DNA of 64,000 bases from Escherichia phage vB_EcoM_NBG2: the sequence record NC_054925.1. One strand, given 5' to 3'. Below the pieces are notes generated by a model, which was given only the letters and a program-made list of their open reading frames with translations, was not told the origin of the DNA and searched no databases. The translations under genes were made by a program, and so were the position numbers. Position 1 is the stretch's first letter. Each line of letters starts with the position of its first letter. Positions 5,231 through 60,443 of this stretch are shown here, piece after piece.

Positions 5231-5245
5231 TCTTTGACGATTTAA

Positions 5246-5275
5246 GGGACCTTCGGGTCCCTTTAGTTGTTTTTA
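5246..5275 (+). terminator. rho-independent terminator after gene 23
   Basis: GGGACC-UUCG-GGUCCC hairpin (UUCG tetraloop) followed by a T-rich run. Confidence 0.8.
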
Positions 5276-5278
5276 TGG

Positions 5279-5286
5279 TATAAATA
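5279..5286 (+). promoter_or_regulatory. T4-type late promoter (TATAAATA) for gene 24
   Basis: Exact TATAAATA 28 nt upstream of the gene 24 ATG. Confidence 0.7.
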
Positions 5287-5313
5287 AATCATATAAACTG
5301 AAAGGAAAGCGCA

Positions 5314-8210: not shown

Positions 8211-9629
8211 TTATGGATAGGTATAGATGATACCAGTTTCTAAAGCAGTTTTATGAATGATGTATCCATTACGCGATTCTTGGACATCAACTTCTGGATA
8301 GTCTTTAATCATCTTCTGAAGAGTGTAACGATGCAGGTAGTATTTACTATCTGGGTCGTCAGTTTTCCAATCTTTACCTTCTTCGGTCATTTTTTGGATT
8401 TCATCCATAACCCACCAACCGCACCAGATATAAGCTGAAGTACGATGTGGAAGAGGATGAACATAAGGTAGTTCACCTTCTGGTTCCGGAGCAACTTTAT
8501 CAGTCACTTGAACTTGACCTGTGGCTTTAACTGTTTTACTATCATAGTCAGTTGCTGTAACGACAGCAGTAACTTCAATAGTTTGACTTCCAATAGATGA
8601 GGTATCAACAGTATATACGTTAGTTGACCCTTCCACAGGAGAAGAATCTTTCTTCCATGAGTAAGTAATTTGTGCTGCTTCAGGTGCGCCATTAACATTA
8701 GCAGTAAATGTAGCCGAAGCATCTTGCTGAACATTAATAGAAGGAGGAGTCAATGTAACCTGTGGATTCATTGTCTTCTTATTAACTGTCAATGATACTT
8801 CATTGGAAGTAACTTCCTTTTCATTATAATTTTCTGCAGTTACTTGGGCTACGCATTTAATTCTTTTTACTCCACTTGTAGTTGGAGTATAGTTAAATGT
8901 AGAGTTAGTTTCTCCACCAACTTGTGAATCATCTACATACCACTGATACGTAGCAGACGCTCCGTCAGGTTGAGAAGCTAATGCAGCAGTAAATTGAACC
9001 GGGGTTCCAATTACTCCAGCAGCAGGACTAGCAGGAGTTACTGCCAAGGTAGTTGTCTGTGTCTTTTTATTAACTGTCAATGATACTTCATTGGAAGTAA
9101 CGCTCAGTGCATCATAATCTGTCGCAGTTACTTGAGCTACACACTTAATTTTTTTAACTCCGCTTGTAGTAGGAGTATAATTGAATGTAGCAGAAGTTGC
9201 TTCGCTCACAGGAGAACCGTCAACGTACCATTGATACGTAGCAGATGCGCCCGATGGCTGTGAAGCTAAGGCAGCAGTAAATTCAACGGCTGTTCCGATT
9301 ACTCCTTCTGGAGGACTATTAGGAGTTACAGCTAAAGTAGTTGTCTGTGTTTTATTTTGAACTGTAATAGTTGTACTAATTTCAGCTGTTTCAGCTTCAG
9401 AATCAGGAATAGTATTTGTTGCAACTACCTTAATAGTCTTTTGACCAGCAGGTCCTTTTAATACATAATTAAAAGTTGCTTCAGCTCCATCTTGTGGAAC
9501 ATCATCTACAGTCCAAGCATATGTAATAGGTCCATCTCCAGTTTGACCACTGGGTGTAGCAGTAAACTGCTTAGTTTCATCAATAACCCCTGTCGGTGTT
9601 TTAGGAGTTATATCAACTGTAAAAGCCAT
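8211..9629 (-). CDS. hoc: head outer capsid protein Hoc, 472 aa, with an extra Ig-like domain
   Basis: Ig-like repeats plus C-terminal capsid-binding region; T4 Hoc recalled as 376 aa; contains an internal near-identical 96-aa duplication. Confidence 0.85.
   Translation of the reverse strand: MAFTVDITPKTPTGVIDETKQFTATPSGQTGDGPITYAWTVDDVPQDGAEATFNYVLKGPAGQKTIKVVATNTIPDSEAETAEISTTITVQNKTQTTTLAVTPNSPPEGVIGTAVEFTAALASQPSGASATYQWYVDGSPVSEATSATFNYTPTTSGVKKIKCVAQVTATDYDALSVTSNEVSLTVNKKTQTTTLAVTPASPAAGVIGTPVQFTAALASQPDGASATYQWYVDDSQVGGETNSTFNYTPTTSGVKRIKCVAQVTAENYNEKEVTSNEVSLTVNKKTMNPQVTLTPPSINVQQDASATFTANVNGAPEAAQITYSWKKDSSPVEGSTNVYTVDTSSIGSQTIEVTAVVTATDYDSKTVKATGQVQVTDKVAPEPEGELPYVHPLPHRTSAYIWCGWWVMDEIQKMTEEGKDWKTDDPDSKYYLHRYTLQKMIKDYPEVDVQESRNGYIIHKTALETGIIYTYP
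8778..9353 (-). repeat. tandem direct duplication (2 x 288 bp) inside hoc encoding two near-identical Ig-like domains
   Basis: Same 35-mer ttattaactgtcaatgatacttcattggaagtaac at about 8780 and 9068; protein residues about 93-188 and 189-284 nearly identical (unit boundaries approximate). Confidence 0.85.
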
Positions 9630-9638
9630 AAGTTATCC

Positions 9639-10319
9639 TTATTTTAATGTTACGAAAGAAGAATTGCGTGTTTCACGAATTAAAACCGATCCATCGCGAT
9701 TAATGTAATAAATTAAGCTAAATAAAGTTTGGTGTGCTGACGCATGCTCAAAACTTGTTGGGTGAGATTTCCAATCTGGAGTTTCAGCAATCCATTGATA
9801 AATCCACCAAGGAACAGTGCAGAATCCTGGATTTTTTCCAATCAGCTGAAGATTTGGGCTAAAGTTTTCTGGAAGAGTAAATACAGACGGCTTTTCAGAT
9901 TCAATAATCTCAGCTACAGCCTGTTCGAATTTTTCTTCAACAAAAGGAGTATCTTCAATTAAAACAGTGGTATTTTCAGGAATTTTATCCGTTTCTACTA
10001 CTTCAATTTTAATGTCAGATTTAACCGGAGAATCAATCAGAAGTGCTGCCTCTGGATTGACTTCTTCATCGTCATATTTTAATCCGTCTGCGGCATCAGC
10101 AGCATCAATTAAGTCTTTAATAGATAACCCATCAGTCTCTGGCATAGGTTCACTAGCGAGCTTCTGGAGAGCTTCTTCAATATCATTAACGATATTATCA
10201 AAAGATTTATTCTTTTTGACCTTTATACCAAACTGTTCAGCATATTCAGCTAATTTAGCTTTAGCTTCTTTATTATCATCAAGAGCCTTCAGCTCTGCAA
10301 TATAATCTTTATCTATCAT
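9639..10319 (-). CDS. inh: Inh, inhibitor of prohead protease
   Basis: 226 aa, synteny downstream of hoc, acidic head-associated protein. Confidence 0.8.
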   Translation of the reverse strand: MIDKDYIAELKALDDNKEAKAKLAEYAEQFGIKVKKNKSFDNIVNDIEEALQKLASEPMPETDGLSIKDLIDAADAADGLKYDDEEVNPEAALLIDSPVKSDIKIEVVETDKIPENTTVLIEDTPFVEEKFEQAVAEIIESEKPSVFTLPENFSPNLQLIGKNPGFCTVPWWIYQWIAETPDWKSHPTSFEHASAHQTLFSLIYYINRDGSVLIRETRNSSFVTLK

Positions 10320-10332
10320 AATATTTCCTCAG

Positions 10333-10340
10333 TATAAATA
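10333..10340 (+). promoter_or_regulatory. candidate late promoter (TATAAATA) upstream of segE
   Basis: Exact TATAAATA 29 nt upstream of the segE ATG in the divergent inh/segE gap. Confidence 0.5.
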
Positions 10341-10368
10341 TAGATATATTTATTACTCGGAAAATAGT

Positions 10369-10986
10369 ATGTACCACTTTGTATATGAAACAACAAATCT
10401 AATAAATGGTAAAAAGTATATAGGAAAGCACTCTACTGATGACTTGAATGATGGTTACCTTGGTTCCGGTAAGGCAATTCAGCAGGCTATAAAGAAATAT
10501 GGTGAAAACAATTTCTCTAGAACAATACTAAAAGAGTTTAAAACTTCCGAAGAAGCGTACATGTATGAAGAAGAAATTATAACTCCTGAACTAATAAAAA
10601 GCAAAAATTATTATAATATGAAACCTGGTGGAATTGGTGGAATTGTTATGACTACAGATGTTATAGCAAAGATGAAAGAATCTTCCGCTAAAAGATTTGA
10701 AAACTCACCGGGCACGGTATTAGGTAAAACTTGTTATACTAATGGAACTAAAAATATTTTTATTAAACCTGGAGAACTTGTTCCAGAAGGATTTGTAAAA
10801 GGGATGGTTCATCCTAATAGAAAGTCCAGAAAAGGATGTAAAGTCAAACCGACTACCACAGGAACTTTTTGGGTCAATAATGGCACAATAAATAAATTAA
10901 TACAACCAGACGGTATTATTCCCGACGGATTTATTAAAGGTCGTCTCATGAAAAGAGATTCTAAAGGCAAATTTAGTAAGGCATAA
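10369..10986 (+). CDS. segE: GIY-YIG homing endonuclease (SegE-like)
   Basis: N-terminal GIY-YIG module (VYETTNLINGKKYIGKHS), 205 aa, location immediately upstream of uvsW as for T4 segE. Confidence 0.8.
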   Translation: MYHFVYETTNLINGKKYIGKHSTDDLNDGYLGSGKAIQQAIKKYGENNFSRTILKEFKTSEEAYMYEEEIITPELIKSKNYYNMKPGGIGGIVMTTDVIAKMKESSAKRFENSPGTVLGKTCYTNGTKNIFIKPGELVPEGFVKGMVHPNRKSRKGCKVKPTTTGTFWVNNGTINKLIQPDGIIPDGFIKGRLMKRDSKGKFSKA

Positions 10987-10988
10987 TT

Positions 10989-12497
10989 ATGGATATTAAA
11001 GTACATTTTCACGACTTCAGTCATGTACGCATCGATTGTGAAGAGAGCACGTTCCACGAATTAAGAGATTTCTTTTCGTTTGAGGCCGATGGATATAGAT
11101 TTAATCCTCGCTTCAGATATGGCAACTGGGATGGACGAATCCGTCTTTTAGATTATAATCGCCTTCTTCCATTCGGTTTAGTCGGGCAAATTAAAAAGTT
11201 CTGTGATAACTTTGGCTATAAAGCCTGGATTGACCCGCAAATTAACGAAAAAGAAGAATTATCAAGAAAAGATTTTGATGAATGGCTTTCTAAATTAGAA
11301 ATCTATTCAGGAAATAAAAGAATTGAACCACACTGGTATCAAAAAGATGCAGTGTTCGAAGGATTAGTTAATCGTCGTAGAATTCTTAATCTTCCAACAT
11401 CCGCTGGTAAATCGTTAATTCAAGCTTTGCTTGCGCGATATTATTTGGAAAATTATGAAGGTAAAATTCTTATCATTGTTCCAACAACTGCTCTGACAAC
11501 TCAGATGGCTGATGACTTCGTCGACTATCGTTTATTCAGTCATGCAATGATAAAGAAAATTGGCGGCGGAGCATCAAAAGATGATAAATATAAAAATGAT
11601 GCACCAGTCGTTGTTGGTACATGGCAAACTGTAGTTAAACAACCGAAAGAATGGTTCTCACAGTTTGGAATGATGATGAATGATGAATGCCATCTTGCTA
11701 CAGGAAAAAGTATTTCATCTATCATATCAGGTTTAAATAACTGCATGTTCAAATTCGGTTTGTCTGGTTCATTACGTGATGGCAAAGCCAATATCATGCA
11801 GTATGTTGGAATGTTTGGTGAAATATTTAAGCCAGTAACGACTTCTAAATTAATGGAAGATGGACAAGTAACTGAGCTAAAAATTAATAGTATTTTTCTT
11901 CGCTATCCCGATGAGTTCACTACTAAATTAAAGGGAAAAACTTATCAAGAAGAAATAAAAATTATTACTGGGCTTAGTAAAAGAAATAAATGGATCGCTA
12001 AATTAGCTATTAAGCTTGCGCAAAAAGATGAAAACGCTTTTGTCATGTTTAAACATGTATCGCATGGTAAAGCTATTTTCGATTTAATTAAAAATGAATA
12101 CGATAAAGTTTATTACGTATCAGGGGAAGTTGATACCGAAACCCGCAATATAATGAAAACCTTAGCTGAAAATGGTAAAGGAATAATTATAGTAGCTAGT
12201 TATGGTGTATTTTCTACTGGTATTTCAGTTAAAAATCTGCATCACGTTGTTTTAGCGCACGGTGTTAAATCAAAAATCATTGTATTACAAACAATCGGTC
12301 GTGTATTACGTAAGCATGGTTCTAAGACAATAGCAACCGTCTGGGACCTCATAGATGATTGTGGCGTTAAGCCAAAATCTGCTAATACGAAAAAGAAATA
12401 CGTTCATTTGAACTATCTTTTAAAACACGGCATTGATCGTATTCAGCGCTACGCAGATGAAAAATTTAATTACGTAATGAAAACAGTTAATTTATAA
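10989..12497 (+). CDS. uvsW: UvsW RNA-DNA/DNA-DNA helicase
   Basis: 502 aa; SF2 helicase motifs (PTSAGKS Walker A, DECH box); sequence recognised as T4 UvsW. Confidence 0.95.
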   Translation: MDIKVHFHDFSHVRIDCEESTFHELRDFFSFEADGYRFNPRFRYGNWDGRIRLLDYNRLLPFGLVGQIKKFCDNFGYKAWIDPQINEKEELSRKDFDEWLSKLEIYSGNKRIEPHWYQKDAVFEGLVNRRRILNLPTSAGKSLIQALLARYYLENYEGKILIIVPTTALTTQMADDFVDYRLFSHAMIKKIGGGASKDDKYKNDAPVVVGTWQTVVKQPKEWFSQFGMMMNDECHLATGKSISSIISGLNNCMFKFGLSGSLRDGKANIMQYVGMFGEIFKPVTTSKLMEDGQVTELKINSIFLRYPDEFTTKLKGKTYQEEIKIITGLSKRNKWIAKLAIKLAQKDENAFVMFKHVSHGKAIFDLIKNEYDKVYYVSGEVDTETRNIMKTLAENGKGIIIVASYGVFSTGISVKNLHHVVLAHGVKSKIIVLQTIGRVLRKHGSKTIATVWDLIDDCGVKPKSANTKKKYVHLNYLLKHGIDRIQRYADEKFNYVMKTVNL

Positions 12498-21447: not shown

Positions 21448-21501
21448 TCCTCATGTTATGTCAGTAAGTTTACTATAACACAACACGAGGGACTTGTAAA
21501 C
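21448..21501 (-). promoter_or_regulatory. early promoter with stem-loop (PeSL-like cassette), copy A
   Basis: Minus strand GTTTAC -35, 18-nt spacer, TATAGT; imperfect inverted repeat spanning the -10; 52 of 54 nt identical to 37403..37456. Confidence 0.65.
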
Positions 21502-23558
21502 TACATTTTGAACTTTTTAGACATTCCGTTAATATTAACCAAAGAAGCCAAGATTTGAGAAACTTCGTTTTCCTCTTCTTTTGATTCTTCTACAAGGAAT
21601 TGATTAAATCCAGTCATTGGACGAACTTCACCAGTTTCCATTAGATGGTCGCCATCATATACCGATTCTTCTAATTGTTCAGAAGGAGGAACGATTGTGC
21701 CTTCGATTAGATACTTGTTATAAGCAGTTTCTTTCATCATGTACGTACTCACTTTATTAATCTTCAGCAAAATTCCACGTGGTAAAATAACTTCAGCTTC
21801 TGATGGAAATCCTGATAAATGACCCGGAACGATAACTTTGATTCGCTCAGCTCCTTTAATTACCATACCTACGCTAGTTTCAGCATCTTCATTCGCATAA
21901 GCAGAGTGACTGCCCATATGCATCAAATCTTCTGCGTCAACTGAACCTTCTCCTTCACCAGAAAATACTGCACTGGAATCATCTAGGGCCATATAGTTTT
22001 TACCATACTCACCGAAGATATTTGGTTTAAGCGATGTGGATACGAAGTTCTTGAAATAGAACATTTTATTTTCAATATTATGACGTAAAGTTTTAAAGGT
22101 AACTTCTTGGCCACGGTAAAGCGTAGTTCCTGGAGGAAGAACTGATCCTTTGGCAAAGGCAGAATCCATTGTCTCGATGTGTTTAATAGCTCGTTCCATA
22201 TATTCTTCACGGGTAGAATCCGGTTTACCTAAAAGGAACGAGTTCATTTCAACATATGAATCTGCACAATAATCTTCAATTACATCAGACTCAGCTTGAG
22301 TTAATCCTTTTGGAGTTACTTCAGTACTTGCATATTCATACGCTTGAGAAGCAGACTCATTAATCAATTTATAAACGCCATTCATGACAAATTGAACAAT
22401 AGCTACCTTTTCATCTGGTGTGGCTTTAGAACCTTTAACTAAATCATTGACAATTTTCTTAATAACATCAAAGCTATTAGAAATATTAATGTCAGCAAGA
22501 TCGCTTAAAATTTTATCAGTTTTATAATCAAAAAATTCTTTATTCTTTAAATATTCTTGAGAACCTTGATATGTTATATCGCTCTGTAACTTGATAGATG
22601 GATCACGTAAACGCGCATGAGCCAATGCAATATGATTTCGGAAGCTTTCTAATTCATAATCACTAGATTTAAAACGGGAAGCACTTCTCATACCACCGAT
22701 AGCTCCTTTGCTGAAGTTTGAACCAACCTGAATAACGCCAGAGTTCATTGGTCCTTCTGCTTTATATACCGGAACTTTAGATTCAAACTCTTGATATTTC
22801 TTAGCAGCGAAGCTATCACCCTGAAGTGAAGCATCGACAGTAGAATATTGAGCTTGTGCTGCTAACCGACGACTAATTTTAGTTTTCTGAATAACAGCTT
22901 GATCCGTGCGCTTATCGTTTTCTAAAGCAATAGAAGCAGCAACAGCAACAGCTTTAGGAACAGCATTACCTGTTTTAACATCTATATAAACATCACCAAC
23001 CTTTGATTCAACTTTTGTGAATAACTCAGTTGAAATAGGAGGTACACCTGGAATGTCTTCTAAATTAGCATTTTTACGGTAAACCATAATATATGCGTAC
23101 TTTTTATCGTAATCCCAGATTTCCTTTAAAAGAACATATCGACCTGCTCCTTTAGTACGTACTAAACGGTCGGCAATAACTTGCATTTGACGAGCTGCAC
23201 CATTTGTTTTACTCTTTAGTACGCGGAATAAGCATGCGTCAATTTTGTATTGTTTCATTGTCTGAAGAGCAGTATCAAAAACCGCATTAATGACACCAAT
23301 TGGATTTCCACCCAAGTTTTTAAGTTTAACTAATGATAGTTTTTCATTGACCCCTATCATTACGATATGCATCATTTTATCGCCTGGCTTAACGTTTTTA
23401 TTTGTATCACCGCCAGAGGTGTATGTACAAAATCTAAATCCAGGAAGCACGCTTTCTTCACCGGCTTGAATAGCAAAAATTTGAGGTATTTTATGCTTAG
23501 GATTTAAGTTAACAACCGGCGCCGAAGCGCCGTCAAATAATTCTGTAATAAGTTCCAT
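21501..23558 (-). CDS. Alt-like ADP-ribosyltransferase paralog (685 aa)
   Basis: N-terminus MELITELFD...; R-S-E signature (TLYRGQ, FVSTSL, EAEVILPRG); tandem to a second Alt-like gene. Confidence 0.85.
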   Translation of the reverse strand: MELITELFDGASAPVVNLNPKHKIPQIFAIQAGEESVLPGFRFCTYTSGGDTNKNVKPGDKMMHIVMIGVNEKLSLVKLKNLGGNPIGVINAVFDTALQTMKQYKIDACLFRVLKSKTNGAARQMQVIADRLVRTKGAGRYVLLKEIWDYDKKYAYIMVYRKNANLEDIPGVPPISTELFTKVESKVGDVYIDVKTGNAVPKAVAVAASIALENDKRTDQAVIQKTKISRRLAAQAQYSTVDASLQGDSFAAKKYQEFESKVPVYKAEGPMNSGVIQVGSNFSKGAIGGMRSASRFKSSDYELESFRNHIALAHARLRDPSIKLQSDITYQGSQEYLKNKEFFDYKTDKILSDLADINISNSFDVIKKIVNDLVKGSKATPDEKVAIVQFVMNGVYKLINESASQAYEYASTEVTPKGLTQAESDVIEDYCADSYVEMNSFLLGKPDSTREEYMERAIKHIETMDSAFAKGSVLPPGTTLYRGQEVTFKTLRHNIENKMFYFKNFVSTSLKPNIFGEYGKNYMALDDSSAVFSGEGEGSVDAEDLMHMGSHSAYANEDAETSVGMVIKGAERIKVIVPGHLSGFPSEAEVILPRGILLKINKVSTYMMKETAYNKYLIEGTIVPPSEQLEESVYDGDHLMETGEVRPMTGFNQFLVEESKEEENEVSQILASLVNINGMSKKFKM

Positions 23559-23561
23559 GAT

Positions 23562-25658
23562 TTATCCTTGAACGAACTTGTAAGGCATGTTTGTAATATC
23601 TATGCAAGACGCAATAATTCCAAGAGATGATTCTACTTTCTGTTTAACATTTGATGAAACAAATGATGCAAAGTCAACTCTGTCTTCTATTTCAATATCA
23701 TCTGTCATTGCAACTACTTCACCCGTTTCCATTAGACGGTCACCGTCATAAATTACTGATTCGGTGAGTTCTTCCGTAGTCATAACTTCAGCTTGAATGA
23801 GTTTTGTATTATTAGATGTTGTTCCGTCATTATTAGAAGCATCAGTTATTTTATTAACTTTGACCATCAATCCGCGCGGTAGAATAACTTCAGCTTCAGT
23901 TGCTATTCCGAGACTTCCTGGATATACAACATTAACTTTATGAGCTCCATCAATTGCCCATCCTATTTGAACTTTAACGTATTCAGGATTTTCTTTATAC
24001 GCTCTTATTTCGTTTGGATTAATAGTTATTCCTTCTTCATTTTTATCAACTGTTAATTCATTACGAGCTTCTGGTTCTAAAAGACCGATACCAGCATGTG
24101 TAATTCCAAAACGTCCAAAAATGATAGGAGTTAAAGAAGTAGATACAAAATTTCTGAAATAGAACACTTTATTTTTAACTAGCGCTTCGTATATAGGAGC
24201 AGTCATACTTTGAGCACGATAAACTGTAATGCCCTCTGGTATACGGTCACCATTTTCAAAAGCTGAATCTAAATTATTTATCGCAGATTCAATTTCTTTT
24301 TCACTCATTACATCATATCGTTCTGGATTGTAGCGGCCTAAAAGAAGATTATTGATGTCAGTATATCCTGATCCACAATACTCTCTAATGCCGCGCTTTT
24401 GCGATGGAGTATATTTAGAACCATCACGTGCAATGGTAATATCAATCATTGGACCTGCACCAATTCCAGAAAAGCTATAAATCATTCGTTTGAGGAATTT
24501 AGTTTTTGCTGCGTTCCAGGAATTTTTAGTTATTTCTTCCCAGACTTCATCTGGCTGCCCTTTACGAGTTTTATTATGTTTATCAAGCCAATTATCTTTA
24601 TATTCTTCAAATAATTGATTAACAGCTGCTGCGTATTTCTCTAAACATTTTATTGAAGTAGTTGGTTCATTTTTAATCGCATTAAGAATTACATCTTTAA
24701 TTTTTTCAGAAACTTCATTAACCTCACTTTTTGAAAAGAATTTATAGTCATAGTGAAGTTCATCTGCGGTTCCTTCGGCAATAATTTTTGCTGCCTTAGT
24801 TTTAGAAGCTAATGAATTAATTCCAAGCTTCATTTCTTCTGCTTCGGGAATTAAAGGAGCTGTAGCAGGTTTATTGAAATTAGCTGCGGTAGATTCATAT
24901 TTCTGGAATAATTCGCTTTCAAATCTAGAAGATTCTAATGACTGACTTTGTGCAATTGCTCTACGGGAAATTTTAACTTTAACGATAACAGCTTGGTCAG
25001 AGCGTTTATCATTTTCTTGTGCAATAGATGCTGCAATTGCCTCATTTTTAGTTACTTGAGCTCCAGTATCTTTATTGATATAAACATCGCCGACTTTCGA
25101 TTCAACCTTAGTAAAGAGCTCGGTACTAATTTCAGGAACTCCTGGAATGTCTTCTAGTGATACATTTTTGCGATGTATAAGAATATATGCGTACTTTTTA
25201 TCATAATCCCAGAGTTCCTTAAGAAGGACGTATCTGCCACCTGAACGACTACGGATAAGTCTATCAGCAATAACTTGAATTTGTCGAGCTTGACCAGCAG
25301 TTTTAGACTTAAGAATACGAAGCATACAGGCATCAATTTTATACTGACGCATCGTCTGCATTGCAACAGTAAAAACTGAATTGATGTAATTAATTGGGCT
25401 TGGACCGAGACCTTTTAATTTAGCAATTGAACCTTTAGCAGTTAATGTAAAAGGAACAATATGCATCATTTTATCGCCCATTTTTAAATCGCGATTAGTA
25501 TCACCTCCAGATGTATAGGTACATAAACGAAAGCCTGGTTGTTCAATTGCATCATCAACATGAACTGAAAAAATTTGTGGTATTTTCTTCTTTGGATTTA
25601 AGTTTGTAATCGGAAGAGTAGTATCTTCGTCAAATAATTCTGTAATGAGTTCCATCAT
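23562..25658 (-). CDS. alt: Alt ADP-ribosyltransferase (698 aa), ligase-proximal copy
   Basis: Same architecture and R-S-E motifs (VYRAQ, FVSTSL, EAEVILPRG); position next to gene 30 as for T4 alt; which copy is orthologous to T4 alt is uncertain. Confidence 0.8.
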   Translation of the reverse strand: MMELITELFDEDTTLPITNLNPKKKIPQIFSVHVDDAIEQPGFRLCTYTSGGDTNRDLKMGDKMMHIVPFTLTAKGSIAKLKGLGPSPINYINSVFTVAMQTMRQYKIDACMLRILKSKTAGQARQIQVIADRLIRSRSGGRYVLLKELWDYDKKYAYILIHRKNVSLEDIPGVPEISTELFTKVESKVGDVYINKDTGAQVTKNEAIAASIAQENDKRSDQAVIVKVKISRRAIAQSQSLESSRFESELFQKYESTAANFNKPATAPLIPEAEEMKLGINSLASKTKAAKIIAEGTADELHYDYKFFSKSEVNEVSEKIKDVILNAIKNEPTTSIKCLEKYAAAVNQLFEEYKDNWLDKHNKTRKGQPDEVWEEITKNSWNAAKTKFLKRMIYSFSGIGAGPMIDITIARDGSKYTPSQKRGIREYCGSGYTDINNLLLGRYNPERYDVMSEKEIESAINNLDSAFENGDRIPEGITVYRAQSMTAPIYEALVKNKVFYFRNFVSTSLTPIIFGRFGITHAGIGLLEPEARNELTVDKNEEGITINPNEIRAYKENPEYVKVQIGWAIDGAHKVNVVYPGSLGIATEAEVILPRGLMVKVNKITDASNNDGTTSNNTKLIQAEVMTTEELTESVIYDGDRLMETGEVVAMTDDIEIEDRVDFASFVSSNVKQKVESSLGIIASCIDITNMPYKFVQG

Positions 25659-33339: not shown

Positions 33340-33572
33340 AGTACGCCATACACCCTTTGTGCTTCAACTAATCCATCAAAATCCAGTTTAAGATGCGTTA
33401 TTTGGTCACCATCACCTGGATTCACAATTACTAATACTGAACGAGGAGTTTCGGTAATAACACGAACCGACGTTTCAGGAAATCGTTCAGAAACCTTATT
33501 TACCAATTCTTGAGCAAATAGTTTAACTTTTTCTTGGAATTCTTTAACAGTAATTGGTTTTTCGCTTAGCAT
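33336..33572 (-). CDS. hypothetical protein (cd.2-like)
   Basis: 78-aa ORF. Confidence 0.55.
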   Translation of the reverse strand: MLSEKPITVKEFQEKVKLFAQELVNKVSERFPETSVRVITETPRSVLVIVNPGDGDQITHLKLDFDGLVEAQRVYGVL

Positions 33573-34093
33573 GTTGATCCCAGCTCCTTACTTTCAACGT
33601 TTTTAACTAATTTGACAGAAACTAATTCAGCATCTTGAGTAATCATTACCGGACCTTCTTCATACTCTTCAAGATATTCTAGAGCTTTCTTTTTAGCTTC
33701 TTCCTTCGTATCAGTTTGAGCATAGATATAAAACATACAACCAGTAATACCTACTACTTTCCACTTAATTTCTTTATCAGCTTTAATTTCAAATTTACTG
33801 ACAGAATCATCTTTTTTAACTTCTTCGAAAAAAGAATATTCTAGCATATAAGCAATTGAAAATAACGGACTAACTTTATAGGATTCACCCATTACATCAA
33901 CAGCTTTATACCAGCAATCGTCAATTTCGCGTTTAATGCTAATAACATTTTTCGCAGGATCTATTTTTACTTTAAATGAATTTTCCCCAATAAACTGAGC
34001 AATTCGTTTATTAGCCCCACAAGTTTCATTAAAAATATCTTTATATCCAGCTTTAAAGCGATAAACCTTATCTTCTTCAAACCATTCGCTCAT
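33566..34093 (-). CDS. hypothetical protein (cd.3-like)
   Basis: 175-aa ORF downstream of an early-promoter cassette. Confidence 0.6.
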   Translation of the reverse strand: MSEWFEEDKVYRFKAGYKDIFNETCGANKRIAQFIGENSFKVKIDPAKNVISIKREIDDCWYKAVDVMGESYKVSPLFSIAYMLEYSFFEEVKKDDSVSKFEIKADKEIKWKVVGITGCMFYIYAQTDTKEEAKKKALEYLEEYEEGPVMITQDAELVSVKLVKNVESKELGSTC

Positions 34094-34824: not shown

Positions 34825-36024
<1,200 letters not shown>

Positions 36025-36028
<4 letters not shown>

Positions 36029-39074: not shown

Positions 39075-40253
39075 TTAAAAGTATTTTTTAAAACTCATCA
39101 TAACTTTATCATCAACATCATTATCAATCTGTGCTACAAGGTAAGATGACAGTTCTACTTCTTGCGGCGCGGATTGAACATTATCAGAATTAAGGTATTC
39201 ACGAATCCAAGGATATGGATGTTTAACCGGAGCATCGGTAATTGGGCATGGAAGACCACACTGTTTCATACGAGATACAGTTAAGTAATCAATAAAGCTC
39301 CACATGCTATTTGTATTTAATCCAGGAACATCGCCATCTTTAAATAAATGAACTGCCCAATCTTTTTCTTGGCGGTTAACTTCCATGAAAATATCAACTG
39401 CTTCTTGTTCACACTCTTGAGCAATTTTAACCCATTCATCGCCATCAGTGCCAAGTTGAAGTTGACGAATAATATATTGAGTGCCTTTAAGGTGAAGCTG
39501 CTCATCACGTGCAATAAACTTCATAATCTTGGCATTACCTTCCATGATTTCCATGTTCTTATGGAAGTTAAAGGTACATGCAAAAGATACATAAAAACGA
39601 ATAGCTTCTAAGGCATTAATAACGTGTAAACAGAGGTAAAGAGACTTCATTAAAGCACGTTTAGCTTCGGCCTCTTGTTTAATAGCTCGGTTTAAACGAA
39701 AGTCGGCATCAGGAGATTCTTTAGCTAGTTCTACAAATTCTTTAGCATTTTCCCATTCACGGGTTTTAATCAGAACATCATCATAATAGCGACCGATAGA
39801 TTCAGCACGTTTCATGATAGCTTCATCTAATACAATCTCATCAAATACCTTTGATGGGTCAGTATAAAGATTTCGCATGATATGAGTATATGAACGGCTG
39901 TGAATAGTTTCACTAAAAGTCCATGTAGCAACCCATGTATCAAGGCTTGGGTCTGAAATTAATGACATAAGTACAGCAGACGGCGCACGACCCTGAATGC
40001 TATCCAAAAGTGATTGATACTTCAGGTTGTTAGTAAAAATATTTTGCTGATACTGAGGAAGCTTATTAAACTGCGCAGCATCCATCATTAAGTTTACTTC
40101 TTCAGGACGCCAGAAAAATGACAACTGCTTTTCGGTTAAATCTTCAAAAACTTTATGACGTTGAATATCATAACGCGCAATACCAAGACCTGAACCGAAG
40201 AACATAGGTTCTTTTAAAACATCAACTGGATTTGTATTAAAAACTGTGCTCAT
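39075..40253 (-). CDS. nrdB: ribonucleotide reductase small subunit; uninterrupted (no intron)
   Basis: 392-aa continuous ORF with the di-iron/tyrosyl-radical R2 fold. Confidence 0.97.
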   Translation of the reverse strand: MSTVFNTNPVDVLKEPMFFGSGLGIARYDIQRHKVFEDLTEKQLSFFWRPEEVNLMMDAAQFNKLPQYQQNIFTNNLKYQSLLDSIQGRAPSAVLMSLISDPSLDTWVATWTFSETIHSRSYTHIMRNLYTDPSKVFDEIVLDEAIMKRAESIGRYYDDVLIKTREWENAKEFVELAKESPDADFRLNRAIKQEAEAKRALMKSLYLCLHVINALEAIRFYVSFACTFNFHKNMEIMEGNAKIMKFIARDEQLHLKGTQYIIRQLQLGTDGDEWVKIAQECEQEAVDIFMEVNRQEKDWAVHLFKDGDVPGLNTNSMWSFIDYLTVSRMKQCGLPCPITDAPVKHPYPWIREYLNSDNVQSAPQEVELSSYLVAQIDNDVDDKVMMSFKKYF

Positions 40254-40304
40254 AAATTTTCCGCTTAGTTAATAGATAGTGACTCGTCCGTGAGTCAAAT
40301 TATA

Positions 40305-43126: not shown

Positions 43127-43438
43127 TTACACCGCCATCTTTCCTTTAATAGGAGGGTGTGATTCATAGTTGTTAAGAACAAAATTATGCGGCTTTGCGA
43201 ATTGACTCAACCAAAATACCTGCGATTCTGTGTCCCATTCATCAAATTCATCTGGAAATTTTAATTGCAATTCGCATAAATCCATAGGTTCACGACGCAA
43301 AATTTCTTTACATTGTTCTACGTGATTCATATAGATATGAGTATTACCACCGGAAAATATCAAATCTCCCGGAATAAGATTACACATCTTAGCTACAATA
43401 TGAACTAACGTAGCATATGATGCAATGTTGAATGGAAG
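43127..43438 (-). CDS. td: thymidylate synthase, exon 2
   Basis: Encodes [15 protein letters not shown]...PPIKGKMAV, continuing exon 1 across a 1016-nt group I intron. Confidence 0.93.
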
Positions 43439-44454
43439 CATTATGTTCAGATAAGGTCGTTAATCTTACCCCGGAATTATATCCAGCTGCATGTCACCAT
43501 GCAGATCAGACTATATCTCCAACTTGTTAAAGCAAGTTGTCTATCGTTTCGAGTCACTTGACCCTACTCCCCAAAGGGATAGTCGTTAGGCATTTATGTA
43601 GAACCAATTCCATTTATCAGATTTTACACGATAAGTAACTAATCCAGACGAAATTTTAAAATGTCTAGCTGCATCTGCTGCACAATCAAAAATAACCCCA
43701 TCACATGAAATCTTTTTAATATTACTAGGCTTTTTACCTTTCATCTTTTCTGATATTTTAGATTTAGTTATGTCTGAATGCTTATGATTAAAGAATGAAT
43801 TATTTTCACCTGAACGATTTCTGCATTTACTACAAGTATAAGCAGAAGTTTGTATGCGAACACCGCACTTACAAAACTTATGGGTTTCTGGATTCCAACG
43901 CCCGTTTTTACTTCCGGGTTTACTGTAAAGAGCTTTCCGACCATCAGGTCCAAGTTTAAGCATCTTAGCTTTAACAGTTTCAGAACGTTTCTTAATAATT
44001 TCTTCTTTTAATGGATGCGTAGAACATGTATCACCAAACGTTGCATCAGCAATATTGTATCCATTAATTTTAGAATTAAGCTCTTTAATCCAAAAATTTT
44101 CTCGTTCAATAATCAAATCTTTCTCATATGGAATTTCTTCCAAAATAGAACATTCAAACACATTACCATGTTTGTTAAAAGACCTCTGAAGTTTTATAGA
44201 AGAATGGCATCCTTTTTCTAAATCTTTAAAATGCCTCTTCCATCTCTTTTCAAAATCTTTAGCACTTCCTACATATACTTTATTGTTTAAAGTATTTTTA
44301 ATCTGATAAATTCCGCTTTTCATAAATACCTCTTTAAATATAGAAGTATTTATTAAAGGGCAGTCCTACAATTTAGCACGGGATTGTCTACTAGAGAGGT
44401 TCCCCGTTTAGATAGATTACAAGTATAAGTCACCTTATACTCAGGCCTCAATTA
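43439..44454 (-). mobile_element. td group I intron (1016 nt) carrying the I-TevI gene
   Basis: 5' splice site after ...TTGGGT with in-frame TAA at intron start; intron begins UAAUUGAGGCCUGAGUAUAAGGUGACUUAUACUUG; ends ...CAUAAUG before exon 2. Confidence 0.93.
43586..44323 (-). CDS. I-TevI: intron-encoded GIY-YIG homing endonuclease I-TevI
   Basis: 245 aa; GIY-YIG module (GIYQIKNTLNNKVYVGSA) plus zinc finger and DNA-binding C-terminus. Confidence 0.95.
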   Translation of the reverse strand: MKSGIYQIKNTLNNKVYVGSAKDFEKRWKRHFKDLEKGCHSSIKLQRSFNKHGNVFECSILEEIPYEKDLIIERENFWIKELNSKINGYNIADATFGDTCSTHPLKEEIIKKRSETVKAKMLKLGPDGRKALYSKPGSKNGRWNPETHKFCKCGVRIQTSAYTCSKCRNRSGENNSFFNHKHSDITKSKISEKMKGKKPSNIKKISCDGVIFDCAADAARHFKISSGLVTYRVKSDKWNWFYINA

Positions 44455-45003
44455 ACCCAAGAAAACATCTACTGATCGTTGATACCACTGCAAATCCAAA
44501 TAGCCATTACGCACATTAAATTGATAGAACATATGACAAGGCGGTAATGCCATATATTTAAGTTCAGCTGGATTCCATGCAGAAACAATTTGACGCCTAT
44601 CATTTGGCAGTTTTTTAATACGATCAATAACTTCTATAATTTGGTCTACACCGCCAAAATCACGCCACTGTTTTCCATAAATTGGACCAAGTTCACCGCT
44701 ATGGTATCCTAAATCTTTTGCTTGATTTTCGTAATTTTCATCCCAGACTGTTTTGCCTTGAATTAATGAATCATGCTGAATTAATCGTAAATCATTTACG
44801 TTAGTGCTTCCTGATAAAAACCAAAGCAGCTCAGCAATGCAAGCTTTCCAGGCGAGCTTCTTAGTTGTTACTGCAGGAAAACCTTTAGTTAAATCCCAGC
44901 GTAATTTAGTACCGAACAAAGCAATTGTTCCTGTGCCTGTTCGGTCATCGGTTTCGTAGCCATTTTCAAAAATGTCTTTAATTAAATCTTGGTATTGTTT
45001 CAT
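44455..45003 (-). CDS. td: thymidylate synthase, exon 1
   Basis: 183 codons, TS active-site region (…LPPCHMFYQF…). Confidence 0.95.
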
Positions 45004-45048
45004 TTAGTACCTTATATAAATTATAATACATTTTATGAAGCTAAATAA

Positions 45049-45408
45049 TCAATACGGTTTAGCATCAAATTTTCTCTCAATTTCAGGTGTGAAATATAAT
45101 TCTTTACCACGTTTGGAAAAGCGACCAATAATATGATAATTATTCTCATCAAACGTGATATTACCAATATCCATAGCTTTCAACCAAATATCGATATTTC
45201 TATCCAGCTTTATGTCAAAATTCCAATACGGAGAACTATTACCAAAAATACTACAAGCGGATTCAGTGAAACAACTGCTATAAATCTTGTCTTTAGGAAC
45301 TACTAATTGATAGACACCTTTAATAAACTGAGGACCTTGCCACTTTGGCTGTTTCGCGTCTTCTTCTAATAGAATAGGGTAATAATTAAAATTCATATTT
45401 TCCGCCAC
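45049..45408 (-). CDS. hypothetical protein located between frd and td
   Basis: 119-aa ORF; in T4 frd and td are recalled as directly adjacent. Confidence 0.55.
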   Translation of the reverse strand: MAENMNFNYYPILLEEDAKQPKWQGPQFIKGVYQLVVPKDKIYSSCFTESACSIFGNSSPYWNFDIKLDRNIDIWLKAMDIGNITFDENNYHIIGRFSKRGKELYFTPEIERKFDAKPY

Positions 45409-45416
45409 GCGTTATT

Positions 45417-46243
<827 letters not shown>

Positions 46244-48265: not shown

Positions 48266-48340
48266 TTTTATTTCCTTTTTAATTTAATTAACAGTTGGTG
48301 CTATGACGATGTATGACCTCATAGCTGGTCAGTGAGATAA
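48266..48340 (-). promoter_or_regulatory. gene 32 mRNA leader: translational operator (pseudoknot plus A/U-rich gp32 binding region)
   Basis: Leader ...GCUAUGAGGUCAUACAUCGUCAUAGCAC...UUAAUUAAAUUAAAAAGGAAAUAAAAAUG matches the T4 gene 32 autoregulatory element as recalled. Confidence 0.7.
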
Positions 48341-48348
48341 TTATAATC

Positions 48349-48356
48349 TATTTATA
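48349..48356 (-). promoter_or_regulatory. late promoter (TATAAATA, minus) for gene 32
   Basis: Plus tatttata about 84 nt upstream of the gene 32 ATG, consistent with a long structured leader. Confidence 0.55.
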
Positions 48357-48364
48357 ATAAGCAA

Positions 48365-54500: not shown

Positions 54501-54508
54501 GAGGTATT

Positions 54509-56354: not shown

Positions 56355-59300
56355 ATGGCTACTTTAAAACAAATACAATTTAAAAGAAGCAAAACTGCAG
56401 GAGCACGTCCTGCCGCTTCAGTATTAGCCGAAGGTGAATTGGCTATAAACTTAAAAGACCGCGTACTTTTTACTAAAGACGACCAAGGAAATATCATTGA
56501 TCTTGGTTTTGCTAAGGGCGGTAGCATTGACGGGAATGTTATTCATATAGGAAACTATAATCAAACTGGTGATTATACTTTAAATGGCGCTTTCACTCAG
56601 ACAGGTAATTTTAATTTAACTGGTATTGCTCGAGTAACTCGCGATATTATTGCCGCCGGGCAGATTATGACTGAGGGCGGAGAACTTATTACAAAAAGTT
56701 CAGGTACAGCGCATGTTCGTTTTTTCGATGGCAATAACCGCGAACGCGGAATAATTTATGCCCCGGCTAATGATGGATTAACTACACAAGTACTTAATAT
56801 CAGGGTTCAAGACTACGCCGCTGGTGATGAAAGCACCTATGCATTTTCAGGCAGTGGCCTATTTACTTCACCTGAAGTATCAGCATGGAAATCTATTTCG
56901 TCTCCACAAATTCTGACCGATAAAGTTATTACAGATGGGAAGAAGACGGGCGATTATGATATATCTTCATTAGCAAATAATAATTCTGACACAGATAAAA
57001 ACTATTTGCGCATTGTACGTACCGACCCAGCGGCCGCAATGCTCCATGAAATTTGTGAAAATAACGGCATCAGTTGGTATTCTGGTTCAACCCCTACTGA
57101 TTACATGTTGTCATTTTCTTATTCCGGTGGGCTTCAAGCAGGCCATTCAATTGCAGTAGGTATGGAATCAAGTCCTATGACATATTCAGCCTTAGGTAAA
57201 GGTTCTATTGCTATTGGCGATAATGATACCGGATTTAAATGGCATCAGGACGGATATTTTCATGCAGTAAACAACGGAACAAGAACTTTCATTTACGGTC
57301 CTGCGGAAACACAAAGCCTTAGAAAAATGGTTATGGGTTATTCTCCGGATGGGATTCTTATGACAACGCCACCGACAGAAAACTATGCATTAGCCACTGT
57401 TGTTACTTACCATGATAATAACGCGTATGGTGACGGTCAAACTCTTTTAGGATATTATCAAGGCGGTAACTATCATCACTATTTCCGCGGTAAGGGTACC
57501 ACAAACATTAATACTCATGGCGGTTTGTTAGTTACTCCAGGCAATATTGACGTTATTGGTGGTTCGGTTAATATTGATGGTAGAAATAATAATTCAATTT
57601 TAATGTTTAAAGGCTATACCATGGGTCAAAGCTCCGTTGATAACATGTATATAGCTGTTTGGGGAAATACTTTTACTAATCCAAGTGAAGGCACCCGTAA
57701 AAATGTCATGGAAATTTCTGATGATATTGGATGGATGCATTATATTCAACGAACAACTGCGGGTAAAATCGAATCGGTTATAAATGGCACCCAGATTGTT
57801 AATGAAAACTTTACAGTAGTAAAAAATGCTACATTTGACGGTACAATCAGCGCAGCCGGTGAAATCGCGACAAATGCTGTAAATGGTCTTCGCATTTGGA
57901 ACGCAGATTATGGAGCTATTTTTAGACGTTCAGAAGGCAGTCTTCATATTATTCCAACTGCTTATGGTGAAGGTAAACATGGCGATATCGGTCCACTTCG
58001 CCCGTTTAGTATGGCTTTAGATACCGGTAAAGTTACTATTCCAGATTTACAATCAAGTTACAATACGTTCGCTGCGAACGGCTATATTAAATTTGTTGGT
58101 CATGGCGCTGGCGCTGGTGGTTATGATATTCAATATGTTCAAGCGGCTCCTATTTTCCAGGAAATCGATGATGATGCTGTAAACAAATATTATCCGATTG
58201 TTAAGCAAAAATACCTTCAAGGTAAAGCAGTTTGGTCTTTAGGTACTGAAATTAATTCAGGTACATTCGTGATACACCATATCAAAGAAGATGGAACACA
58301 GGGCCATACATCAAGATTTAATGCTGATGGTACAGTTAACTTCCCGGATAACGTTCTGGTCGGCGGTGATATTAACATGAAAGGCTTGATGACTTTTGAC
58401 GCCGGACGTTTAGGATCACGAGATTATTTTAAATTTAACCATTGGGGTGATAGCAATAACGCTCGTGATAACATCATCCAGTTAGAAGATAGTCAAGGCG
58501 CCCATTTTTCCACTGAACGTACTTTAGCGACAGGTGCAATTAAAACTCGTTTCTTTGGCGAAACATTCACTGATGGTACATTATACTTAAATCAGATGAA
58601 TAATAGCTCTGAACGATTCTCTATCAACAATTGGGGAAATTCAGAAGTTGGTCGCGCGGCAGTATTGGAAGTCGGCGATTCAAAAGGTTATCACTTCTAT
58701 GCTGAACGCAGGACAGATAACAGTTTGATGTTTGATGTTGCTGGTTCTTTGACCGTGCATGGACCTAGCGGAATAACCATCAAAAACTCAACTGGTGCTC
58801 GCCATATCTGGTTTAGAGATGATAGCGATGCAGAAAAGGCTGTTATCTGGGCTACAGATGAGGGTATTTTACATATACGAAATAATCATGGGGGTTCATT
58901 TAGTCATCACTTCCAGGGTGCAATGATTAAAGCGGGAGAGCAAGTTCCTTATAATAGTGAATACGCTCTTATCCGTGGTGATGTTTTTGGTGGTGCTTGG
59001 GATGACTGGCGCAACCGTCCTGCTGGTATTCTCTTAGATTGTCAGGATTCACATACCCGAGCATATTCAATTTGGAAAGCAACTCATTGGGGTGTTGATC
59101 ATCTTGCGGCAATGGGTGTTCATGCTGTCGGTGGTCAAGCTACCGTAATGATGCATATGAACAAAGGCGGCTGGTATTCATGGACTGCAAATGGTGATTT
59201 CATATCTAGTGCGTCGGTTTACTGTAACGATGTTTATATTCGTTCCGACCGTCGTCTGAAAATTAACGTTGAAGACTACGAAGAAAATGCGGTAGATAAG

Positions 59301-59597
59301 GTAAATAAACTAAAAGTTAAAACCTACGATAAAGTTAAGTCTCTTTCTGACCGAGAAGTCATCGCACATGAGATTGGTATTATCGCGCAGGATTTACAAG
59401 AAATTTTACCGGAAGCTGTTAGCACTTCTAATGTCGGATCTCTTGATAACCCAGAAGAGATTTTAACAATTTCTAACTCTACAGTGAATGCTCTTTTAAT
59501 TAAGGCTATTCAGGAAATGAGTGAAGAAATTAAAGAATTGAAAACGCCTCTCTTTACTAAAATTGCTCGCAAAATTAGTAAATATTTTAAATTCTAA
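56355..59597 (+). CDS. 37: long tail fibre distal subunit gp37 with C-terminal intramolecular chaperone-like domain
   Basis: 1080 aa; C-terminal about 117 aa begins ...YIRSDRRLKINVEDYEENAV..., resembling self-cleaving chaperone domains of other phage fibres. Confidence 0.9.
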   Translation: MATLKQIQFKRSKTAGARPAASVLAEGELAINLKDRVLFTKDDQGNIIDLGFAKGGSIDGNVIHIGNYNQTGDYTLNGAFTQTGNFNLTGIARVTRDIIAAGQIMTEGGELITKSSGTAHVRFFDGNNRERGIIYAPANDGLTTQVLNIRVQDYAAGDESTYAFSGSGLFTSPEVSAWKSISSPQILTDKVITDGKKTGDYDISSLANNNSDTDKNYLRIVRTDPAAAMLHEICENNGISWYSGSTPTDYMLSFSYSGGLQAGHSIAVGMESSPMTYSALGKGSIAIGDNDTGFKWHQDGYFHAVNNGTRTFIYGPAETQSLRKMVMGYSPDGILMTTPPTENYALATVVTYHDNNAYGDGQTLLGYYQGGNYHHYFRGKGTTNINTHGGLLVTPGNIDVIGGSVNIDGRNNNSILMFKGYTMGQSSVDNMYIAVWGNTFTNPSEGTRKNVMEISDDIGWMHYIQRTTAGKIESVINGTQIVNENFTVVKNATFDGTISAAGEIATNAVNGLRIWNADYGAIFRRSEGSLHIIPTAYGEGKHGDIGPLRPFSMALDTGKVTIPDLQSSYNTFAANGYIKFVGHGAGAGGYDIQYVQAAPIFQEIDDDAVNKYYPIVKQKYLQGKAVWSLGTEINSGTFVIHHIKEDGTQGHTSRFNADGTVNFPDNVLVGGDINMKGLMTFDAGRLGSRDYFKFNHWGDSNNARDNIIQLEDSQGAHFSTERTLATGAIKTRFFGETFTDGTLYLNQMNNSSERFSINNWGNSEVGRAAVLEVGDSKGYHFYAERRTDNSLMFDVAGSLTVHGPSGITIKNSTGARHIWFRDDSDAEKAVIWATDEGILHIRNNHGGSFSHHFQGAMIKAGEQVPYNSEYALIRGDVFGGAWDDWRNRPAGILLDCQDSHTRAYSIWKATHWGVDHLAAMGVHAVGGQATVMMHMNKGGWYSWTANGDFISSASVYCNDVYIRSDRRLKINVEDYEENAVDKVNKLKVKTYDKVKSLSDREVIAHEIGIIAQDLQEILPEAVSTSNVGSLDNPEEILTISNSTVNALLIKAIQEMSEEIKELKTPLFTKIARKISKYFKF

Positions 59598-59603
59598 CAA
59601 CAA

Positions 59604-59621
59604 GGGGGAAATGCCCCCTTT
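59604..59621 (+). terminator. weak hairpin after gene 37
   Basis: GGGGG-AAAUG-CCCCC followed by only UUU. Confidence 0.4.
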
Positions 59622-59633
59622 GGAGTATAAATT

Positions 59634-60413
59634 ATGGCAGTAGTTGGAGTTCCTGGCTGGATTGGAAGTTCAGCCGTAAATGAAACGGGTCAGCGCTGGA
59701 TGAGTCAAGCAGCTGGTCAATTAAGATTGGGTGTTCCTTGCTGGATGAGTCAATTTGCAGGTCGCTCAAGAGAAATTATTCATACACTTGGAGCAGACCA
59801 TAACTTCAATGGTCAATGGTTCCGAGATAGATGTTTTGAGGCAGGTAGTACACCTATAGTGTTTAATATCACTGGAGATTTAGTATCATATTCTAAAGAT
59901 GTTCCTTTATTCTTCATGTACGGAGATACACCGAATGAATATGTTCAGTTGAATATACACGGCGTAACGATGTATGGACGTGGCGGTAATGGCGGTAGCA
60001 ATAGTCCTGGTTCAGCTGGAGGTCATTGTATTCAAAACGATATTGGTGGGAGACTAAGAATTAATAATGGCGGAGCTATTGCTGGAGGCGGCGGTGGCGG
60101 CGGCGGCGGCAACAGGGGTAGACTATCCTTTGGCGGCGGAGGCGGTCGTCCATTTGGCGCTGGTGGGTCTTCCTCTCATATGAGTGCTGGTGCAACCAGC
60201 GGCACTATTTACGCTCCGGGTGCAGGATCTGTCGGTGAGGGGTCTCTTAGTGCATATACAGGCGGGAATGGCGGTGAAGTTGGCTCCGCAGGAGGTAGAT
60301 GTAATACTCACGGTACCGGTACAGAATATGACGGCGGTGCTGCTGGTTATGCCGTCATAGGGTCTACACCGACATGGCAAAATGTTGGAGCAATATATGG
60401 TCCAAGAGTATAA
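59634..60413 (+). CDS. 38: tail fibre tip adhesin gp38 (T2/T6-type, glycine-rich motifs)
   Basis: 259 aa with several poly-Gly motifs separated by short variable segments; unlike the 183-aa T4 gp38 chaperone. Confidence 0.85.
60084..60110 (+). repeat. (GGN)9 codon tract inside gene 38
   Basis: ggaggcggcggtggcggcggcggcggc encoding nine consecutive Gly. Confidence 0.9.
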
Positions 60414-60443
60414 TTTGAATAAATATCCTTAAAAGGAGGGTCT

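Follow-up and report, generated by a model that had tools for sequence, protein, structure and literature searches.

The td gene of Escherichia phage vB_EcoM_NBG2 lies on the minus strand of the stretch of DNA analysed here (64,000 nucleotides of NC_054925.1, hereafter the window) and is split by a group I intron of 1016 nt (44454..43439, minus strand), which in turn carries the gene of the homing endonuclease I-TevI. Exon 1 (44455..45003, minus strand; 549 nt, 183 codons) ends in ...TTCTTGGGT (with more context, ...GTTTTCTTGGGT), its last base being 44455 on the minus strand, and the intron starts at 44454, directly after the terminal U of the exon, with TAATTGAGGCC... (also given as TAATTGAGG and TAATTGAGGCCTGAG). 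The 3' end of the intron, ...CTGAACATAATG, reaches 43439 with G as its last base, upon which exon 2 (43127..43438, minus strand; 312 nt including the stop codon) opens at 43438 with CTTCCATTC (longer, CTTCCATTCAAC). Reading the junctions from the sequence as ...TTGGGT|TAATTGAGGCC... and ...CATAATG|CTTCC, we thus find both hallmarks of a group I intron, namely an exon-1 U for the U.G pair of P1 and an intron-final G. The intron opens with an in-frame TAA as its first codon, which is why exon 1 appears on its own as a 183-aa open reading frame. Once joined, the two exons yield an 861-nt coding sequence for a 286-aa thymidylate synthase that equals T4 Td in length and is colinear both with it and with the intronless td of T2H and RB32, such that excision of the intron restores the host gene. 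The preliminary description of this DNA had already placed a 1016-nt group I intron at 43439-44454, coordinates that proved exact.

The ribozyme consists of a 5' part (44362..44454, minus strand; intron positions 1-93, from P1 to the 5' side of P6) and a 3' part (43439..43607, minus strand; intron positions 848-1016, from P6' to P9.2), the latter overlapping the final 22 nt of the I-TevI reading frame when the stop codon is counted. At the gathering threshold, an Rfam scan of the whole window returned no match. We dismissed the conclusion that no intron is present, as a relaxed scan placed RF00028 at 43487..43717 (42.5 bits, E = 3.5e-9, against a gathering score of 50) and the scan of an ORF-less homologue, the 262-nt td intron of phage 215Ecol030PP (L007), gave 65.5 bits for the same family, over the gathering score. 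The L007 intron corresponds to the window intron minus positions 94-847 (258/262 identical, 4 mismatches), with nt 1-93 identical in the two phages, and the window copy falls under the gathering score because its 754-nt ORF insert splits the model. Judging from its 100% identity to the T6 intron and its 99.8% identity to that of T4, the window intron is expected to self-splice, and in our own reading of the P1/P10 pairing the CUU at +1..+3 would keep or slightly extend P10.

The I-TevI gene (43586..44323, minus strand; 245 aa), a GIY-YIG homing endonuclease gene, resides within the P6 loop of the intron. As described before, it is intact, and it is 100% identical to T4 I-TevI at both the amino acid and the nucleotide level. 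Three Pfam domains score over their curated cut-offs, i.e., PF01541 GIY-YIG (2.1e-18), PF22635 I-TevI zinc finger (1.3e-20), and PF20987 I-TevI DNA-binding domain (3.3e-32). Given that it does not differ from the T4 enzyme, which has been characterised (PMC2988022), the protein would be expected to cleave intronless td and to promote homing of the intron. We suggest that td be annotated as a joined coding sequence, not as two thymidylate synthase fragments. In several GenBank/RefSeq records of intron-containing phages, td is given as two separate 'thymidylate synthase' coding sequences, and one such record mislabels I-TevI as a sigma factor.

Next to td, an optional ORF of the td.1/RB32ORF229c family (45049..45396, minus strand; ~115 aa) sits between frd and td, two genes that overlap in T4. 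The insert measures 417 nt and is flanked by a 12-nt direct repeat, TAAATGAAA(T/C)AA, at 44995-45006 and 45412-45423, which duplicates the junction of the frd stop and the td start; the annotation of the RB32 record describes the ORF as 'flanked by 9 bp repeat'.

A free-standing segE gene between inh and uvsW

The second mobile gene in the window is segE (10369..10986, plus strand; 205 aa), a free-standing GIY-YIG endonuclease gene that follows inh (9639..10319), as in T4, and precedes the uvsW helicase gene (10989..12497, plus strand; 502 aa), which keeps its T4 synteny and begins 2 nt after segE. We assign it to segE on the basis of both its location between inh and uvsW and its SegE-type GIY-YIG domain (PF19835 SegE_GIY-YIG, 36.5 bits against a cut-off of 25, 6.4e-9), two features that it shares with T4 SegE. 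Of its residues, 204/205 (99.5%) equal those of T4 SegE, the sole change being A173T, which lies outside the catalytic domain, and at the nucleotide level 1/618 positions is mismatched. Hence, the earlier report of a SegE-like GIY-YIG gene before uvsW is borne out.

Upon counting mismatches to T4 per 100 nt, we found segE to be embedded in an island of near-identity (10300..11160, plus strand) with 1 mismatch in ~860 nt, while the flanks carry 2-5 per 100 nt. The island reaches ~175 nt into uvsW, the gene that SegE targets in segE-less phages (PMC2988022, Table 1).

On the other side of inh, Hoc (8211..9629, minus strand) has 472 aa versus 376 aa in T4, and overlapping blastn pieces within it suggest an extra internal repeat (Ig-like domain).

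Four further T4 loci appear as empty alleles

Within the span of the window, T4 has six homing-endonuclease loci, two of which are occupied here (td intron/I-TevI and segE) and four of which are empty (the nrdB intron with I-TevIII, segD, mobE together with nrdB.1, and segG). The elements listed in the preliminary description hold up, while its inventory was incomplete in that it missed the absences of mobE (with nrdB.1) and segG.

As stated there, nrdB (39075..40253, minus strand; Pfam PF00268) is a single uninterrupted ORF of 392 aa. In a global alignment it shows a single clean 598-nt gap to T4, exactly at the T4 intron, which in T4 is inserted after ...TTTGCGT. Positions 39578 and 39577 border the intronless insertion site, which reads GCAT|GTACC (longer, TCTTTTGCAT|GTACCTTTAAC), with no cryptic intron remnant at the junction in the alignment to T4, and I-TevIII gave no tblastn match below E = 0.3 anywhere in the window. 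The protein is 4 residues longer than that of T4, the difference falling in a divergent patch at ~aa 170-200. The corresponding nt ~480-645 (window ~39650..39780, minus strand) diverge from both T4 and T2H and contain the indels that underlie 392 aa as opposed to 388 aa. Further towards the start of the gene, nt 100-160 are identical to T2H, and this includes the polymorphic nick-site region of MobE (40123..40140, minus strand; nrdB nt 114-131) and codon 42 (AAG), to which MobE-dependent nicks have been mapped (PMC2790892). The spacer between nrdA and nrdB (40254..40304, minus strand), where T4 has mobE and nrdB.1 (701 nt), is only 51 nt long and matches the T2H spacer at 49/51 positions.

Gene 24 (5314..6597; 99% amino acid identity to T4) directly follows gene 23 (3665..5230; 96%), in agreement with the earlier claim. 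The 83-nt spacer between them (5231..5313, plus strand), at the place where T4 has segD (about 790 nt, on the opposite strand), holds a terminator hairpin (GGGACCTTCGGGTCCC then Ts) homologous to the terminator after T4 gene 23, a late promoter TATAAATA, and a Shine-Dalgarno sequence. We looked for a degenerate segD fragment by tblastn and by blastn-short against the T4 23-24 interval, and the spacer contains none, the matches of the latter search being limited to the terminator stem that both phages have after gene 23 and to 7-9-mers expected by chance. The spacer between genes 59 and 32 (48266..48364, minus strand), where T4 has segG (633 nt), is 99 nt long and includes a late-promoter match, TATAAATA, along with a 3' part, CCAGCTATGAGGT...CATAGCACCAACTGTTAATTAAA..., that is nearly identical to the T4 sequence upstream of gene 32.

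Searching the window by tblastn with T4 SegD, I-TevIII, nrdB.1, MobE, and SegG at E<=10 returned paralogous GIY-YIG matches on segE and I-TevI, the only two matches obtained with SegD, plus one MobE match. We rejected the latter (54250-54582, E = 5e-4) as spurious, as it spans the boundary of genes 34 and 35 out of frame and with stop codons. At the T4 positions of segD, mobE, and segG there is neither an ORF nor a remnant, the spacers of 83, 51, and 99 nt being devoid of homologous sequence. We thus read the sites of the nrdB intron, segD, mobE, and segG as empty alleles with intact intergenic signals.

How these four sites came to be empty is a matter of history that the sequence fits in each of three ways, i.e., never having been invaded, loss of the element, or replacement by an empty allele. 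The group recombines at a fine scale, with several haplotype switches inside td alone (see below), and a site overwritten by an empty allele would be scarless, as the clean junctions are; both points speak for secondary loss, whether through precise deletion or through recombinational replacement with an empty allele. We nevertheless hold secondary loss, as opposed to never having been invaded, to be a credible but unlikely history for the four sites, because no remnant of any kind was found in the window and because the empty state is the majority state for all four elements in the phage collection. The optional mobile elements of the window do form a mosaic, and the preliminary reading of the pattern as past homing or loss is supported by the footprints of movement (intron versus exon identity and the segE island), the four empty sites being compatible with either direction of change, gain or loss.

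Other ORFs that differ from T4

Several ORFs set the window apart from T4 elsewhere. Between cd.2 and cd.3, the window has an ORF of 175 aa (33566..34093, minus strand; phrog_3710, no Pfam domain) that T4 lacks and IME340 shares, and two ORFs of 100 aa and 81 aa (35726..36028 and 45998..46243, both minus strand; phrog_2364 and phrog_3183) are absent from T4. We considered the T4-absent ORFs at 33566-34093, 35726-36028, 45049-45408, and 45998-46243 as endonuclease genes and rejected them, as they show no Pfam nuclease domain and belong to PHROGs of unknown function. In addition, two full-length alt-like ADP-ribosyltransferase genes lie in tandem (21501..23558 and 23562..25658, minus strand), where T4 has one alt and the short remnants alt.-1 and alt.-2. 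Gene 37 cannot be aligned to T4 in its distal part, and gene 38 encodes 259 aa as compared to 183 aa in T4 (56541..60419, plus strand). This module presumably resembles a T2-type adhesin, which would make it a receptor-binding module unlike that of T4.

Relatives of the window and population frequencies

Three parts of the window, compared by megablast with 50,697 phage records, yielded hundreds of Tequatrovirus matches at 95-99% identity. The closest records in this collection are ~97% identical over 25 kb, and none reaches at least 99% over that length. In a blastn map, the window is colinear with T4 (NC_000866) from gene 20 to motA. Colinearity with T4 and the lack of a record at 99% or more together identify the window as a segment of a T4-like phage that matches no record of the collection fully.

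Comparison with individual phages points to the td-nrd region of the T6/T2H type, with td.1 present and with neither mobE nor an nrdB intron, as the closest known arrangement. T6, PST, and IME340 share with the window the gene order frd - td.1 - td - nrdA.2 - nrdA.1 - nrdA - nrdB, the intron at every base, its insertion site, and the exon-1 flank, and they likewise lack the nrdB intron and mobE; T6 differs in having segD, which is absent from the window. T2H (AY262132) has the same gene order in this region, the same empty nrdA-nrdB spacer, and the same nrdB length of 392 aa, with 108/1179 nt of nrdB differing from the window, ~70 of them between nt 481 and 645. Its td is intronless, unlike that of T6 and that of the window. 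T4 shares the I-TevI protein, the splice junctions, and the 286-aa length of Td, whereas its intron differs at 2 positions, its Td differs in the segment of aa 235-268, and it lacks td.1. Furthermore, T4 has in this span the nrdB intron with I-TevIII, mobE, nrdB.1, segD, and segG, all of which are missing from the window.

To place the combination within the group, we counted the records of the phage collection that hold at least 80% of a query in one place, on a scale set by the 480-505 records that are at least 95% identical to 25-kb backbone queries. The full td intron occurs in 195 records and td without a full-length intron in 447, while segE was found in 157 records, segG in 142, the nrdB intron in 118, segD in 53, and the T4-type nrdB.1+mobE arrangement in 20 (143 with any mobE-region match). 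Each element is hence optional and present in a minority of the ~500 relatives, which makes the combination in the window unremarkable.

Haplotype boundaries around the td intron

Within the last 40 nt of exon 1 lies the I-TevI cleavage motif CAACG (-27..-23). The window, T6, PST, and IME340 have these 40 nt in common, and T4 deviates from them by 1 nt. Against the intronless RB32, the same 40 nt show 9 differences, all of them synonymous, with RB32 having C for T at -1. On the other side of the intron the affinities are reversed. Exon 2 differs from T4 at +3, +6, +9, +12, and +18, all synonymously, and from T6 and PST at positions including +3, +9, and +12 (for T6 also at +24, +28, and further downstream), yet from RB32 at only 5/312 nt, two of them in the first codon, such that the window carries the haplotype of intronless RB32 from +4 on. 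The intron-associated haplotype block thus starts between -67 and -37 and ends between +1 and +3. A second mosaic breakpoint lies within exon 2, where Td aa 235-268 (43127..43300, minus strand) are wholly unlike T4 and PST and match T6, IME340, and RB32.

The block fits homing by double-strand-break repair, in which the tract between cut and insertion site is obligatorily co-converted and the crossover would fall immediately 3' of the intron; it also fits later recombination of the exons. A stretch of 120 nt across the intron/exon-2 junction has no 100% match in the phage collection, the nearest haplotypes being those of HY03 and Manna with 1 mismatch, followed by at least 37 records with 2 mismatches among the matches listed (ECO4 included). 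The many junctions at 1-2 mismatches indicate that the arrangement is a common one, and the lack of an exact match means that the breakpoint may reflect later exon recombination and not the original homing event. A more specific scenario, in which the intron homed into a diverged RB32/T2-like td allele and the event was resolved with essentially no 3' co-conversion, would agree with a tract that covers no more than about 40-65 nt of exon 1 and passes just beyond the I-TevI cut at -23/-25; we regard it as doubtful. If it were true, a few bases of exon homology would suffice to resolve natural td homing, and minimal-tract events would dominate the spread of the intron between diverged wild phages.

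Recent arrival of the intron and segE as the favoured origin

The window intron equals the td introns of T6, Yersinia phage PST, and IME340 at 1016/1016 positions and differs from that of T4 (NC_000866.4) at 2, namely a T run at 44363 that lacks one base and a C to A change at 43506. Exon 1, by comparison, differs from T4 at 21/549 positions, a rate at which ~39 differences would be expected in the intron (P(<=2) ~1e-14). Near-identity also characterises the intron in the collection at large, where any match to it occurs in 288 records, at least 80% of it in 195, and a match of at least 99% identity in 192. In the literature, such a pattern marks a td intron that has recently spread horizontally among the T-even phages (PMC2988022), and the copies of both the intron and segE are identical or nearly so to those of T4 or T6 while the surrounding genes have diverged by several percent. 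We therefore propose that the intron and segE most likely reached this lineage fairly recently, by homing or recombination.

Vertical inheritance would account for the same facts differently, with an ancestral intron and segE, a patchy distribution that arose from repeated precise loss, and an identity to T4 and T6 that was kept by purifying selection. The single exon-1 flank haplotype common to the intron-plus phages could indeed reflect common descent, and constraint acts on both the ribozyme core and the endonuclease as functional sequences. Such constraint does not by itself account for the identity, since td introns with only 90% (AV115, G2469) and 79% (Melville) identity exist. Moreover, the 0/1016 nt differences from T6, PST, and IME340 extend to the synonymous sites of I-TevI, although T6 and IME340 are 2-4% away in the adjacent td exons and PST and T4 up to ~25% away in exon 2, and the segE island of identity is sharp-edged. 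Under vertical inheritance, the presence of the elements should follow the backbone tree and the intron should diverge in step with the backbone, and the data point the opposite way. Ancestral inheritance of the two elements hence strikes us as very improbable, and recent arrival is retained.

That the intron is present yet functionally decayed, by failing to splice or by an endonuclease that is inactive or mis-regulated, is scarcely credible, for while the T run upstream of the I-TevI start is 1 nt shorter than in the T4 reference (44363), the C-to-A change at 43506 lies just 3' of the conserved GAUAUAGUC core motif, and relatives with ORF-deleted td introns exist, both variants are common to the identical introns of T6, PST, and IME340, T6 is a viable laboratory phage, 1016 nt is the length in nearly all records, the A at 43506 agrees with the Rfam consensus, and the I-TevI protein equals the active T4 enzyme. 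As a side observation, the td intron of T4 RefSeq NC_000866.4 measures 1017 nt with an extra T upstream of I-TevI, in contrast to 1016 nt in the resequenced T4 MT984581.1 and nearly all others, and the extra T is probably an error of the reference sequence or a stock variant.

Discussion

Overall, we conclude with a probability of roughly 0.93 that the window represents an unexceptional piece of a Tequatrovirus genome, with optional mobile elements that make up part of the T4 set and act by the mechanisms known from T4. We came across nothing that contradicts this reading. The anatomy, the identities, the haplotype breakpoints, and the population frequencies are direct observations on the sequences. 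With matches to characterised T4/T6 genes at 95-100% nucleotide identity, the pattern of elements is not a product of chance. Reportedly, the survey of Sandegren and Sjöberg from 2004 is among the publications on patchy distribution, near-identity, and flank co-conversion. All three features have been published for this group (PMC2988022, PMC2790892).

As for how the elements behave, we rely on published work on identical proteins for splicing, cleavage, and conversion alike. After transcription, the td intron RNA would fold and excise itself to leave a td mRNA of 286 codons. In a mixed infection, I-TevI would bind the intronless td allele of a co-infecting phage and cut it 23/25 nt upstream of the insertion site, upon which the break would be repaired by recombination with the intron-bearing genome, the recipient thereby gaining the intron along with part of the flanking exon. 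SegE would act likewise as a free-standing gene on the uvsW of segE-less phages, and the resulting gene conversion would cause marker exclusion (PMC2988022, PMC2790892). The preliminary description had predicted which loci would be converted in mixed infection, and this prediction is supported for I-TevI, SegE, MobE, and SegG, for which conversion is established (PMC2988022, PMC2790892), and is not established for SegD, whose mobility was listed as not determined in a 2010 review (PMC2988022), the one source that a literature search on this point turned up. With T4 as the partner, the phage would be the donor at td and uvsW, and it would probably be the recipient at nrdB/mobE and gene 32/segG, as the nick region of nrdB, which equals that of T2H, would predict for mobE. 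Reportedly, a study later than that review observed no homing of segD driven by SegD itself.

Intron homing and marker exclusion have their founding model in the td intron, its I-TevI gene, and the seg and mob genes of the T-even phages, and by our reading the present finding is biology already known from the T-even literature. The window contributes one further combination of presence and absence, with small import beyond correct annotation, and its inventory indicates which markers of this phage a cross with T4-like phages would enrich or deplete.
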